DNA from: a virus
DNA: 64,000 nucleotides
Strand: one strand, 5' to 3'
Virus record (IMG/VR): IMGVR_UViG_3300016466_000859
Coordinates: 66,948 to 130,947 of that record
Positions 9,263-44,421 of the stretch are shown here, piece by piece. Position 1 is the stretch's first letter, and each line of letters opens with the position of its first letter. The notes below the pieces were generated by a model. That model was not told where the DNA came from and did not search any database. It worked only from the letters and a program-made list of their open reading frames with translations. A program made the position numbers and the translations under genes.

Positions 9263-9349
9263 TATTGACGGTGTATACTCAATGAATGCCGGCAAAACAC
9301 CACATTGATTAGACGCTATCATTTATATAACTCCAGGAGAAATAAAACA

Positions 9350-10318
9350 ATGGAAAAAAGAACTCTACGTTGGGTCCTAGCCCACGAACCAATCGAGATC
9401 TTCATTCGTGCCGCGGAAAAATTCGCCAAATCTATCAGTGAGAAGACCAACGGTGCCATCAGCATCGATATCATGACCGCTGAACAATATGGCAAAAAAT
9501 ATCATGGCATGGACAAGGTCGACACACAATATCGCTACGACCTCATCAAGCACTTAGAATCCGGTGAACTTGAAATGAGCCAGATGTACACAACCACATT
9601 GGGCACACACTACGACCAGCAGTTGCTGGCCTTTGATATGCCCTACATTTTCGCCGATCACGATCACGTCGCTCGTGTGCTGGACGGTGAAATCGGTGCT
9701 GGCCTGCGCAAGAGTCTCAGCGAAAAGACCAACATGGCTTCGTTGGCCTTCACATACTCGGGTGGTTTCCGTGTGCTGCCTTCGGCCAAGAAAATCACCA
9801 GCATCACAGAGCTCGCAGGCGAAAAGGTCCGCGTTGGTAGCCCTGTTTCCCTAGAAACATTCAAGGCTCTGGGTTGCGAAGCCGTCGACGGCATCATGAT
9901 CGAAGAGTTGGGCGAAGCCATTGGCGACGGTCGTATTGTTGCCGGTGAAAGCACATACCCACGTCTCTATGGTACCGAGCAGAACATCGCTCCTAGCAAA
10001 ACTGCCAAAGCGGTGATCAACACCGAGCACAGCCTGTTCCTGACAACCATCCTCATCAACAAGGACATCTGGAACAGCTTTGATGCTGAACTCCAACAGT
10101 TCATGCTGGAAGCCGCTCACGAGGCTGCTCTAGAAGAGCGCAAAGAAGCACTGGCCGACATCAAGAAGAACCAAGCTCGGTTGGCCCAAGACGGTGTTGA
10201 AGTGGTTGATCTGCCTGCCACAGAAATCGACCTGTTCCGCAACAAAACAGCAGTGGTCTATGACGTACTCGCTGACATGTTCGAACCCGGTCTGATCAGC
10301 AACATCAAAAACGCCTAA
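9350..10318 (+). CDS. dctP: TRAP transporter substrate-binding protein (DctP family), no signal peptide
   Basis: AGGAG SD before ATG 9350; FDMPYIFADHDH, YSGGFR, LAGEKVRV, HSLFLTTILIN. Confidence 0.85.
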   Translation: MEKRTLRWVLAHEPIEIFIRAAEKFAKSISEKTNGAISIDIMTAEQYGKKYHGMDKVDTQYRYDLIKHLESGELEMSQMYTTTLGTHYDQQLLAFDMPYIFADHDHVARVLDGEIGAGLRKSLSEKTNMASLAFTYSGGFRVLPSAKKITSITELAGEKVRVGSPVSLETFKALGCEAVDGIMIEELGEAIGDGRIVAGESTYPRLYGTEQNIAPSKTAKAVINTEHSLFLTTILINKDIWNSFDAELQQFMLEAAHEAALEERKEALADIKKNQARLAQDGVEVVDLPATEIDLFRNKTAVVYDVLADMFEPGLISNIKNA

Positions 10319-10335: not shown

Positions 10336-10361
10336 AAAAAGCCCGCTTCGGCGGGCTTTTT
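10336..10361. terminator. Bidirectional intrinsic terminator
   Basis: AAAAA-GCCCGC-TTCG-GCGGGC-TTTTT between convergent genes. Confidence 0.92.
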
Positions 10362-10378: not shown

Positions 10379-10672
10379 TTACTCAGCGGCTTCTGCTTTG
10401 GCAGATTTCTTGGCAGTCGTACCAGGTACTTTGAAGAACTTGGCAAGATCAAAGTTGGTAGCTTCGTTGATGGCATTTACGGTTTCCTCTGTGAGGCGTG
10501 TGCTAATTTCGTTAGCGACTTTGACGGCGCTCTTGGTGTAGGCAGTCTGCCCATCAATAAAACCATTTAACGCTGCCTTAATACCGTCGTGTTGTACGAA
10601 CGTACCGACAACAGTTTTCTTGGCGTTCTGTACTTGGTCGATGTAAAAGTCGGGGGATACATTGTAAAACAT
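10379..10672 (-). CDS. Phasin-like (PHA granule-associated) protein, 97 aa
   Basis: AAGGAG SD; amphipathic helical A/T/K-rich sequence with Lys/Ala tail; PhaR-like operator upstream. Confidence 0.5.
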   Translation of the reverse strand: MFYNVSPDFYIDQVQNAKKTVVGTFVQHDGIKAALNGFIDGQTAYTKSAVKVANEISTRLTEETVNAINEATNFDLAKFFKVPGTTAKKSAKAEAAE

Positions 10673-10761
10673 TTGCTTTCTCCTTGTAGTTAAGCGAGTT
10701 TGGTTACCTTGACCCGCACCGTGCGGCATCTTGGTTTACTGCATTCTTTTGATTGTAACAT

Positions 10762-10782
10762 TATTTATATTGCGGTGCAACA
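10762..10782 (-). promoter_or_regulatory. PhaR-like palindrome fused to TAAATA box
   Basis: Minus strand TGTTGCACCGCAATA-TAAATA; 18/21 identical to 43193-43213. Confidence 0.7.
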
Positions 10783-10886
10783 TATAATATGCCCACTTTA
10801 CAGATCAGTTTTCCCAAAAAAAATATTTTCACGGTCATGACATGACCTAGTAAATACTACACTAATCGATTAGGAGATTTTTCAAA

Positions 10887-11165
10887 ATGGAAATTATCAT
10901 CATTGTAGCAATTCTTGCCGGTCTCGCTTTTTTTCTGTTCCGTGGCTTTGACGCCAACAAAGACGGTAAAGTGACCTTTGACGAAGTCAAATCAGCTGCC
11001 GATGCCAACAAAGACGGCAAAGTTGATGCCGAAGATGTCAAGGTTGTGGCCACTAAGGCCAAAGCAGTTGCTAAAAAAACAGCCGCTAATATTGGTGCCA
11101 AAACCAAAACTGCTGTCAAAAAAGCCACTGCTAAAAAACCTGCCGCTAAAAAGACAGGCAAATAA
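10887..11165 (+). CDS. Membrane-anchored protein with two DANKDGKV (EF-hand/dockerin-like) loops and a Lys/Ala-rich tail
   Basis: TAAATA at 10851-10856, AGGAG SD; N-terminal TM helix; AKK/KKPAAKK repeats. Confidence 0.8.
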   Translation: MEIIIIVAILAGLAFFLFRGFDANKDGKVTFDEVKSAADANKDGKVDAEDVKVVATKAKAVAKKTAANIGAKTKTAVKKATAKKPAAKKTGK

Positions 11166-41798: not shown

Positions 41799-41885
41799 TC
41801 ATGGTAAGTTGACCCAGATCGCTGCAAACATCAAAGCAATCCAGGCCAATCCAAACAAGAGATTTATTTTATGTCGCGATTTCAA
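41799..41885 (-). CDS. Possible 28-aa membrane peptide
   Basis: TTG start overlapping the aceA stop: [28 protein letters not shown]. Confidence 0.35.
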
Positions 41886-43168
41886 TGGAACTGTTCTTCT
41901 TCAGTGGAACCTTTGAGTGCCTGGGTAGAAGCATCGGCTTCAATGGTGGTGGTCACAGCGTCAAAGTAAGATGTGCCTACTTCTCTTTGGTGCTTGACAG
42001 CTTCGAAACCACGGCCCGCATCAGCAAACTCGCGTTCTTGTAGCTCCACGAAAGCAGACATGCCATCCCTAGCATAACCATGAGCAAGGTCAAACATACT
42101 ATGATTAAGAGCATGGAATCCAGCAAGTGTGATGAATTGAAAACGGTAGCCCATTGCTCCAAGTTCACGTTGGAAACGGCTAATTGTGTCTGCATCTAGA
42201 TTTTTCCTCCAATTGAATGATGGTGAGCAGTTGTAGGCCAGCATCTTGCCGGGGTAGTGTCGTTGTATACCTTCGGCAAATCTGCGTGCGAAGTCGAGGT
42301 CTGGAGTTCCGGTTTCACACCACAGCAAATCGCAATAAGGTGCATAGGCAATCCCTCGTGCCAATGCCTGATCAAAACCTTTGCGAGTGCGATAAAATCC
42401 TTCCACGGTGCGTTCGCCAGTTAAGAAAGGTCGATCATTCTCATCAATATCAGATGTAACTAAGTCTGCAGCTTCGGCGTCGGTACGAGCGAGCAATACT
42501 GTAGGTACCCCCATGACGTCGGCAGCCAATCTCGCGGCAATCAGTTTGTTGACAGCTTCACGAGTAGGCACCAAAACTTTACCACCCATGTGACCGCATT
42601 TTTTCACTGAAGCGAGTTGATCTTCGAAGTGTACTCCTGCGGCACCAGCTTCGATCATGGCTTTCATCAACTCGAATGCGTTAAGCACACCGCCGAACCC
42701 AGCCTCGGCGTCGGCTACGATGGGAGCGAAGAAATCTCTGCTTCCGTTTTGTTCCATCCACTGTATCTGATCTGCACGGGTGAAGGTGGCATTTATTTTG
42801 CGTACCACTTCCGGTACCGAGTTTACTGGATATAAACTCTGATCGGGATACATTTCTCCAGCGGTGTTAGCATCGCCCGCTACCTGCCATCCCGAAAGGT
42901 ATATGGCCTTTAATCCTGCTTTAACTTGTTGTAAGGCCTGCATGCCAGTCAAAGCACCCAAGGTATTGACATAATCTTCTGTGTGTAACAGATTCCACAA
43001 CTTTTCGGCTCCGCGTTTGGCCAAGCTGTACTCAATGGGATTCGATCCTTGTAGGTTGATTACTTGCCGTGCGTCATAAGTGCGTTTGATTCCGGCCCAT
43101 CTCGGGTTGTCGCTCCAGTCTTTTTGCAGTTGATATGCTTTCCAATCGCGTGGCTTTTCCGTTGACAT
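41882..43168 (-). CDS. aceA: Isocitrate lyase
   Basis: [39 protein letters not shown] signature, [21 protein letters not shown]. Confidence 0.97.
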
Positions 43169-43192: not shown

Positions 43193-43213
43193 TATTTATG
43201 TTGCTATGCAACA
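43193..43213 (-). promoter_or_regulatory. PhaR-like palindrome fused to TAAATA box
   Basis: Minus strand TGTTGCATAGCAACA-TAAATA; perfect 6-3-6 inverted repeat. Confidence 0.72.
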
Positions 43214-43221
43214 CCTACACT

Positions 43222-43374
43222 TCAATGTTGGCCGTAGGGATTTTTACCGGAGTCGGGCCAAACTAGATAGATATCAGGATTTTGTGTATTGTCATCAGTT
43301 GTGGCATCAAGAATCGAGTCATTGGTGTCCTGGACACACATAGAAACACATTGAGATAAGTCATCTGACATCAT
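43222..43374 (-). CDS. 50-aa acidic peptide (not in ORF track)
   Basis: TAAATA 43404-43409, AGGA SD; MMSDDLSQCVSMCVQDTNDSILDATTDDNTQNPDIYLVWPDSGKNPYGQH. Confidence 0.5.
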   Translation of the reverse strand: MMSDDLSQCVSMCVQDTNDSILDATTDDNTQNPDIYLVWPDSGKNPYGQH

Positions 43375-43977: not shown

Positions 43978-44421
43978 TTATTTGAGACTGGCTCTCAACA
44001 TCCAGGAGTGTTTGCGGTGTGCGTCCATGCGTCCAGCAAGGAAGTCGGCTAGTCCTTCTTCACCGGCTTCGGTGGCCATGTCAAACACACGCTTGAGGAT
44101 CTTGACCATCTTGTCAGAGTCGTCGAGCAGTTCTTGGCACATGTCTTCGGCGGCCAGGATGGCAGTTTCATCGTCGACCATGCTGAGCATGCTGAAACGA
44201 GTGAATGACCCTGGTGTATAGGAATCCAGCTTGCGGATATTTTCTGCGAACAGGTCGATGCTGCCATAGACCTCTTCGTAGATGTCACCGAACAGTTCAT
44301 GGAACTGCGCGAAGTGTATGCCTTCCACATTCCAGTGAAAGTTGTGTGCTTTGAGATAAAACGCGAACTCAGATGAGAACGCGATCTTCATGGCTTTTTT
44401 GAGTTCGTCCATCTTAATCAA
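43978..44421 (-). CDS. dps: Dps/ferritin-like protein
   Basis: YLKAHNFHWNVEG, FHELF, DLFAENIR, KHSWML. Confidence 0.92.
   Translation of the reverse strand: MIKMDELKKAMKIAFSSEFAFYLKAHNFHWNVEGIHFAQFHELFGDIYEEVYGSIDLFAENIRKLDSYTPGSFTRFSMLSMVDDETAILAAEDMCQELLDDSDKMVKILKRVFDMATEAGEEGLADFLAGRMDAHRKHSWMLRASLK

Follow-up and report, generated by a model that had tools for sequence, protein, structure and literature searches.

Putative host PhaR operators in the promoters of a phasin-like gene and aceA of a huge freshwater phage

The DNA analysed here (the window, 64,000 nucleotides) corresponds to bases 66,948-130,947 of a single 130,947-bp IMG/VR record and includes two copies of a palindromic motif, both of them located within core promoters, one that of a gene coding for a 97-amino acid protein and the other that of aceA, the gene for isocitrate lyase. 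The motif is specific to these two promoters within the record, is conserved in related phages, and is identical to a box found upstream of phasin genes in Polynucleobacter, and the promoter of the 97-aa gene has the layout of the host phaP1 promoters. Sequence comparison makes it probable that two genes of the phage carry operators for the PhaR repressor of its host, and that the first of them, transcribed from a phaP1-type promoter, encodes a relative of the phasins that coats PHB granules, the second being an isocitrate lyase. The phage would thus probably read the carbon reserve of the host to time the expression of both genes.

The 21-mer TGTTGCACCGCAATATAAATA was found exactly where the original prediction had placed it (10782-10762, minus strand). 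The near copy that had been announced ahead of aceA, TGTTGCATAGCAACATAAATA, was located at 43213-43193 on the minus strand, 25 nt from the aceA start; it is identical at 18 of 21 positions and likewise has zero spacing between the palindrome and the sequence TAAATA. A search of the window with a degenerate 21-mer pattern allowing up to 3 mismatches produced 2 matches versus 0.13 expected, and the genome-wide scan that had been proposed, carried out on the complete 131-kb record, returned these two sites and none besides. Table 1 lists the features of both loci.

Table 1. Location of the features identified at the 97-aa gene and aceA loci (window coordinates; a dot in the strand column denotes a feature with no assigned strand)
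Feature	Coordinates	Strand	Basis or remarks
Bidirectional terminator (likely): hairpin GCCCGC-N4-GCGGGC with flanking A and T runs	10336..10356	.	Read from the sequence
Gene for the 97-aa phasin-like protein (helical hairpin plus Lys/Ala-rich tail)	10379..10672	-	AF2 model, protein family, Phasin_2 relatives
Ribosome-binding site AAGGAG	10680..10685	-	Conserved in relatives
5' leader RNA hairpin, 11 pairs, 5-nt loop	10707..10734	-	Covariation in 51 sequences
TG-extended -10 element TGTTACAAT	10752..10760	-	Invariant in all 8 aligned loci
TAAATA word in the promoter spacer	10762..10767	-	Phage promoter core elsewhere; poorly conserved here
Putative PhaR-type operator TGTTGCACCGCAATA, TGTTGC-N3-GCAAYA palindrome	10768..10782	-	Fits the R. 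eutropha consensus; Polynucleobacter phasin box
-35-like hexamer TTGCAC inside the operator	10775..10780	-	17 nt from TACAAT
aceA, isocitrate lyase	41882..43168	-	NCBIfam NF011645 equivalog, 781 bits
TAAATA promoter core abutting the second operator	43193..43198	-	Conserved in relatives
Second putative PhaR-type operator TGTTGCATAGCAACA	43199..43213	-	15-mer identical to a Polynucleobacter phasin-gene box (L117)

The PhaR motif of Ralstonia eutropha is YTKNTGCRNYGCANMAR, the conserved positions being those numbered 1-4 and 7 from the centre, and the PhaR sites of phaP1 in this bacterium are found at the -35 and -10 boxes (PMC12849132). For Sinorhizobium meliloti the published motif has the sequence YGCRNYGCR and AT-rich arms; EMSA confirmed it at phaP1 and phaP2 as well as at two depolymerase genes, and the wider regulon of this organism extends to ppa, TRAP transporters, and an isocitrate-lyase-family protein (PMC12542648). 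The arms of the 15-bp palindrome fit TKNTGC-N3-GCANMA at both phage sites. Each site has 3 mismatches to the full 17-mer YTKNTGCRNYGCANMAR, mostly at weakly conserved positions, the exception being the aceA site, which has an A for Y at +1, a position that is counted as conserved (PMC12849132).

The phage boxes agree at every arm position with the consensus of the Polynucleobacter phasin boxes, T-(G/T)-K-TGC-A-N-Y-GCA-A-Y-A. A Polynucleobacter metagenome-assembled genome (MAG) contained 15 occurrences of the strict pattern versus 5 of a reversed control, and the clearly intergenic sites precede the intracellular PHB depolymerase gene, phaR, and ppa, with another before an SLT transglycosylase gene. 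In 12 further genomes of the genus a TGC-N3-GCA box was present within 260 nt upstream of 23 out of 28 Phasin_2 loci. Curated phasin upstream windows included such boxes in 18 of 20 cases; the 20 windows, 200 nt each, had 27 boxes, i.e., 6.75 per kb versus 0.37-0.45 elsewhere in the same loci, a 16-fold enrichment (p=8e-21). The box was also found in 8 of 11 upstream regions of phaR and in 5-7 of 14 upstream regions of phaZ. The classical PhaR regulon consists of phasin genes, depolymerase genes, and an autoregulated phaR. Since these are the genes that carry the box in Polynucleobacter, the box can be ascribed to PhaR, by regulon logic and by likeness to the motifs of other species, with a confidence that is good but indirect. 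The proposal that the phage site is a PhaR-like operator was well supported by these comparisons, as the palindrome fits the published consensus and equals the box that precedes phaP, phaR, and phaZ in Polynucleobacter.

Two other sets of matches were discarded. The strict hit GCATAAATA in contig L100 of the MAG was attributed to chance, as this is a mis-binned phage contig and the hit forms part of the late promoter, of ordinary type, that precedes a virion protein gene; the left half-site is absent from the homologous promoter of the phage under study. The strict pattern TKNTGCNNNGCANMA, when applied to five related phage records, gave mostly chance matches within coding sequences and missed true sites that have GCAATA arms.

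A search for the DNA-binding domain of PhaR (PF07879, PHB_acc_N) was negative for this record and for five related phage records, one of them 91% and another 100% complete. A host sensor is therefore implied, in agreement with the suggestion that the repressor belongs to the host rather than to the phage, and the PHB sensor would be the host's own. It could be argued that the box is a real operator of some other regulator, either a phage repressor encoded in the missing part of the genome or another host factor acting at phasin promoters: the PhaR identity of the box rests on sequence comparison, about 63% of the phage genome is missing from the record, and the different conserved element found at host aceA (see below) shows that other regulators act on this pathway. 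We consider this improbable. In the host genus this box is located before phaP, phaR, and phaZ, a set of genes that amounts to the classical PhaR regulon with its autoregulation. The box fits two experimentally derived PhaR consensus sequences, and a PhaR-like DNA-binding domain was not found in either of the nearly complete relatives. The only protein near aceA that is labeled "DNA binding protein", by PHROGs, has a Dps/ferritin fold. It is encoded at 43978-44421 on the minus strand, about 0.8 kb upstream of aceA (Pfam Ferritin, 77 bits).

The boxes are also maintained among related phages, which was one of the checks called for by the original prediction: they are kept before both gene families. 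In seven close relatives of the 97-aa gene the sequences TTGC and GCAA are invariant and the N3 centre varies. At the level of the protein family, 47 of 67 distinct upstream regions include a box (4.98 per kb versus 0.26, p=4e-38), usually TGTTGC-N3-GCAACA, about 90-110 nt before the start codon. Upstream of aceA in related phages, a TGC-N3-GC(A/C) box abuts 12 of 26 TAAATA sites. On the other hand, it was present at 1 of 274 control TAAATA sites, so that the box is not found at many unrelated TAAATA promoters, an outcome that would have spoken against the prediction.

In this phage the word TAAATA is genuinely associated with promoters: 24 of the 143 predicted genes, structural genes among them, have it in the 60 nt ahead of the gene, versus about 2 expected. 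The operator had been described as fused to a TAAATA promoter, a description that was borne out at aceA and was not at the 97-aa gene. In the close relatives of the latter TAAATA changes to TAAGTA in 3 of 7 cases, TTGC-N3-GCAA and TAATGTTACAATCAA being unchanged in all 7, and throughout the family TAAATA follows 22 of 51 boxes; the conservation of TAAATA at orthologous promoters that characterizes T4-type late promoters is thus not seen at this gene. A TATAAT/TACAAT-type hexamer (TAnnnT) is located 16-18 nt after the TTGCNN of the box in 38 of the 51, and the promoter of the 97-aa gene has the arrangement of a sigma-70 extended -10 promoter, TGnTAnnnT preceded at 16-18 nt by a -35-like hexamer. 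Polynucleobacter phaP1 promoters are organized in this manner, with the box over TTGCAn followed after 16-17 nt by TATAAT. The hexamer TTGCAC matches TTGACA at 3 of 6 positions, as is also the case for the -35 of the host phaP1 promoters, and this is why a simple sigma-70 scanner did not list the promoter of the 97-aa gene. A sigma-54 promoter (GG-N10-GC) was considered and rejected because the spacing does not fit. The working promoter of the 97-aa gene is therefore probably of the host sigma-70 type rather than TAAATA, and the layout shared with the host phaP1 promoters suggests that the phage copied a phaP-type promoter-operator unit, which is presumably read by the RNA polymerase of the host. 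A bound dimer would occlude the polymerase at both genes, as the box covers the -35 hexamer of the 97-aa gene and abuts TAAATA at aceA.

As TTGCAN does act as a -35 hexamer, the palindrome could be a mere promoter element, or a duplicated cassette, with no repressor involved and a coincidental likeness to PhaR sites; the two promoters of the window resemble each other outside the box as well (by eye, at about 26 of 36 positions), which duplication could explain. This seems very improbable to us. A -35 hexamer needs no symmetric partner, yet both half-sites are kept and the central 3 nt vary freely in the 7 close and 47 distant relatives. Furthermore, the aceA box of the relatives stays symmetric while its distance to TAAATA shifts by 0-3 nt, and the other promoters of the phage do not have the box.

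At aceA the TAAATA sequence looks like a real promoter. It is conserved in the relatives, often 8-20 nt from the ribosome-binding site, no sigma-70 -10 hexamer is found downstream of it, and the gap between box and TAAATA is 0-4 nt with the symmetry of the box preserved. A malate synthase partner for aceA was not found in the record. A proximal PhaR-type box was not found at Polynucleobacter aceA, and therefore the wiring of the phage aceA would be its own, with no host precedent in the genus. The Polynucleobacter aceA loci (L131-L141) have in common an upstream element, CTCTTATATAAGACATAAGAC, which is conserved, does not resemble the PhaR box, and is probably the site for another regulator; host aceA was for this reason rejected as the origin of the phage box. 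In many Polynucleobacter genomes aceA and phaZ are 2-4 kb apart, which hints at a functional link between them, and in one phage record (G005) aceA adjoins the phasin-like gene, each of the two genes having one box. A 50-aa ORF (43222-43374, minus strand) with its own TAAATA at 43409-43404 ends right before the aceA operator, and the C-terminal portion of its coding sequence is conserved in the relative L080.

The AF2 model of the 97-aa protein (pLDDT 78) consists of two helices, residues 7-25 and 29-80, followed by a disordered Lys/Ala tail. Its mean hydrophobic moment, 0.30 versus 0.20 +/- 0.04 in shuffled sequences (p ~0.014), together with the model, is indicative of the all-helical and, in this case, moderately amphipathic fold that is expected of Phasin_2 proteins. 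The protein had been predicted to be phasin-like, with Pfam Phasin_2 (PF09361) proposed as the check. That check was negative: the protein does not reach the Phasin_2 gathering score, and it had no Pfam, NCBIfam, or PHROG match, in the case of Pfam even at E<=1. A tblastn search with the protein against deposited phages gave nothing, as did megablast of the region; comparison to the PDB by sequence profile and by Foldseek gave designed helical bundles or noise only; and hhalign of the protein family against Polynucleobacter phasins was not significant (probability 0.8%). What remained of the prediction, with weak support, comes from the amphipathic helical hairpin and from the relatives of the protein. 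Two of them, P0152 (26.5 bits) and P0157 (26.1 bits), are above the Phasin_2 cut-off of 24.9, a third, P0149, scored 24.7, and their alignments span positions 30-94 or 36-94 of the model. Several further relatives fall just under the cut-off, with alignments within positions 28-94. Weak matches to Phasin_2 were found in 17 of 69 family members, far above any other family, this being the only recurrent Pfam family. Against this, only 2 of 62 profile hits have a precomputed Phasin_2 domain. The two best structural matches in BFVD are proteins of uncultured phages that UniProt names Phasin. As it is the relatives and not the protein itself that pass the cut-off, the homology to Phasin_2 is transitive only, and the 97-aa protein can be considered a likely, though not established, divergent and virus-specific relative of the Phasin_2 proteins.

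A profile of the family retrieved 338 IMG/VR loci, and a HMMER scan yielded 129 representative clusters, with lengths of 63-161 aa, and in addition two long repeat proteins, P0035 (1886 aa) and P0111 (1012 aa), which include 9 and 6 tandem phasin-like modules, respectively. The Atlas neighbours of the 97-aa protein are viral without exception, and a profile search of 60 Burkholderiaceae genomes did not find the family. It is therefore not a recent copy of a host gene, and may have undergone a drift in function. Record G004, complete at 337 kb, has a single site with a box plus TAAATA (L158:1500-1833), which precedes the gene for a different helical protein, of 88 aa, flanked by genes for a fatty-acid desaturase and ClpP. 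The layout of its promoter is TTGCAC, 17 nt, TATAAT, and the hhalign match between this protein and the family is weak (E 0.007, probability 5%).

The operator assignment could be correct and the 97-aa protein could nonetheless be something other than a granule-binding phasin, such as a PhaR binder or mimic, or a membrane or lipid protein that shares the PHB-dependent timing. We think this somewhat unlikely. It would be in keeping with the lack of a direct family match, the non-significant hhalign result against host phasins, and the virus-only distribution of the family, and short helical hairpins do match many families weakly, as illustrated by the Perilipin, ApoC-I, and PHB_acc leads. Against it, Phasin_2 is consistently the top Pfam family, with two members above threshold, and the gene has a phaP-type promoter, which is a mark of phasins in bacteria.

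A second inverted repeat, which the original prediction had noticed in the leader of the 97-aa gene at about 10714-10728, is indeed present, with the structure CCGCA-N3-TGCGG at 10714-10726. Its interpretation as a further PhaR-like element was abandoned: the core GCA-N3-TGC is the inverse arrangement of the operator, and the repeat is the core of an RNA hairpin that covaries. In an alignment of 51 family leaders (A6), 89.6% of the cells were paired versus 75% in shuffles and 26-47% in slid controls, and there were 81 double-change cells versus 25 in shuffles, none of the 500 shuffles reaching 81. Double changes affect 8 of the 11 pairs, and G-U pairs are frequent, which indicates an RNA on the sense strand. 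The hairpin is followed by a conserved AAACTCGCTTAA and then by the ribosome-binding site. The fold of the single sequence is ordinary (z = -0.64), the structure being visible from the alignment only. No Rfam family was detected at gathering score for the hairpin in the window or in 20 relatives; a sub-threshold match to freshwater-2 (19 bits) was obtained in the window. The leader is thus a candidate new cis-acting RNA, which may act as a 5' stabiliser or as a regulator-binding site.

On its other side, the 97-aa gene is convergent with a gene (9305-10318, plus strand) coding for a TRAP-type DctP solute-binding protein (Pfam DctP, 135 bits), for which neither membrane partner genes in the vicinity nor a PhaR box were seen. 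The hairpin at 10336..10356 is likely a bidirectional terminator common to both genes; a terminator scan did not list it. The order of the DctP and phasin-like genes recurs in the related fragment L084. A divergent gene (10887-11165, plus strand) with its own TAAATA at 10851-10856 encodes a protein of 92 aa in which a hydrophobic segment at the N-terminus, two calcium-binding EF-hand loops, and a tail rich in Lys/Ala can be recognized.

The IMG/VR record is linear, has a G+C content of 45.8%, and its completeness was estimated by CheckV at about 37%. Its family-B DNA polymerase is 52% identical to the counterpart in Sinorhizobium phage Phosso and 49% identical to the one in Agrobacterium phage Atu_ph07, with the Rak2-like and T4-like phages as remoter kin, and related phages that have the same genes are represented by contigs of 200-340 kb. 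By this kinship and size, the record is taken to be a piece of a huge T4-related freshwater phage. When bacterial genomes were searched with the 97-aa protein, a single match was obtained, in a 2.5-kb contig (L084/L161) of the Polynucleobacter MAG mentioned above (G001). This contig is itself a phage fragment, syntenic for the EF-hand, phasin-like, and DctP genes. The MAG includes at least three short contigs from phages of the same group, which carry a virion protein (L100), the 3' end of aceA at 80% identity (L142), and the phasin-like locus (L084/L161). These contigs are contamination of the bin and also a pointer to the host. A full-length Polynucleobacter-1 RNA (RF01718, 99 bits) is present in the phage genome outside the window (G000:C1:6230-6375, L160:431-576), and the phage aceA is 69-72% identical to that of Polynucleobacter. 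The mis-binned contigs, the matching G+C content, the RF01718 RNA, and the aceA identity are suggestive, although not proof, that the host is probably Polynucleobacter or a close Burkholderiaceae relative, an assignment made from binning and composition.

From these characteristics we infer the binding of PhaR, its titration by PHB, the binding of the 97-aa protein to granules, and the physiological purpose of the system, which could operate as follows. When the host has no free PHB surface, PhaR would sit on both boxes and block RNA polymerase. Nascent or uncoated PHB granules would titrate PhaR away and the 97-aa gene and aceA would be expressed, expression being confined to PHB-rich hosts. 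The 97-aa protein would most likely coat PHB granules, and in doing so it might change access to the polymer or displace PhaR and the host phasins. Isocitrate lyase would turn the acetyl-CoA released from PHB into C4 building blocks and so perhaps into biomass for virions, and the conserved 5' RNA element might add post-transcriptional control of the phasin-like mRNA. A more general scheme, in which widespread huge freshwater phages sense PHB through host PhaR by means of a virus-specific granule coat, isocitrate lyase, and a leader RNA as a second layer of control, is put forward tentatively, as a possibility that falls short of being probable.

The arrangement resembles the PhaR-phaP circuit of R. 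eutropha (Cupriavidus necator), Paracoccus, and S. meliloti (AniA) in the TGC-N3-GCA core with T at -7 and A at +7, in the overlap of the operator with the sigma-70 -35/-10 region, and in having a small amphipathic helical protein as the target. It differs from that circuit in that the operators are located on the genome of a lytic-type huge phage with the regulator not encoded alongside, one target uses a TAAATA promoter, and the target protein belongs to a virus-only family. The 97-aa protein shares with Phasin_2 (PF09361) the all-helical amphipathic character and the Lys/Ala-rich tail, but it is about half the length of the host phasins (97 vs 180-220 aa) and has neither a direct match nor a significant profile match to those of Polynucleobacter. 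As in the phage aceA link, the PhaR regulon touches central carbon metabolism through an isocitrate-lyase-family protein and ppa in S. meliloti (PMC12542648). The accessible portions of previous reports indicate that aceA is known in huge phages and in marine T4-like viral genomes, its carriers being phages of about 200 kb or more, freshwater ones included, and do not describe its regulation (bioRxiv 10.1101/2025.02.27.640493; PMC5332604). Compared with aceA as it appears in those portions, the gene studied here has a PhaR-type box in front and no malate synthase partner in the record.

The literature that was searched had no description of phage phasins or phage PhaR boxes. Links between phage auxiliary genes and nutrient regulators of the host are already known in the case of phosphate and nitrogen, as in the cyanophages, where Pho boxes read by host PhoB precede pstS and phoA and NtcA sites are found in promoters. 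As in those cases, a metabolic gene of the phage would be wired to a host transcription factor and its expression would track the nutrition of the host. Unlike them, the repressor would be titrated here by the surface of a storage polymer, instead of a two-component response to phosphate or 2-oxoglutarate, and the set of phage genes would include a structural granule protein. The promoter layout illustrates how a phage can acquire from its host a copy of a promoter-operator unit instead of a gene. With two short operators, one 97-aa protein, a repressor of a known class, and natural variants by the hundreds, the proposal lends itself directly to testing. A tie of phage genes to carbon storage would be new. 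If true, phages of abundant lake bacteria gauge and exploit the PHB reserves of their hosts, and this would have a bearing on carbon flow in lakes and on the strains used in PHB-producing bioprocesses.
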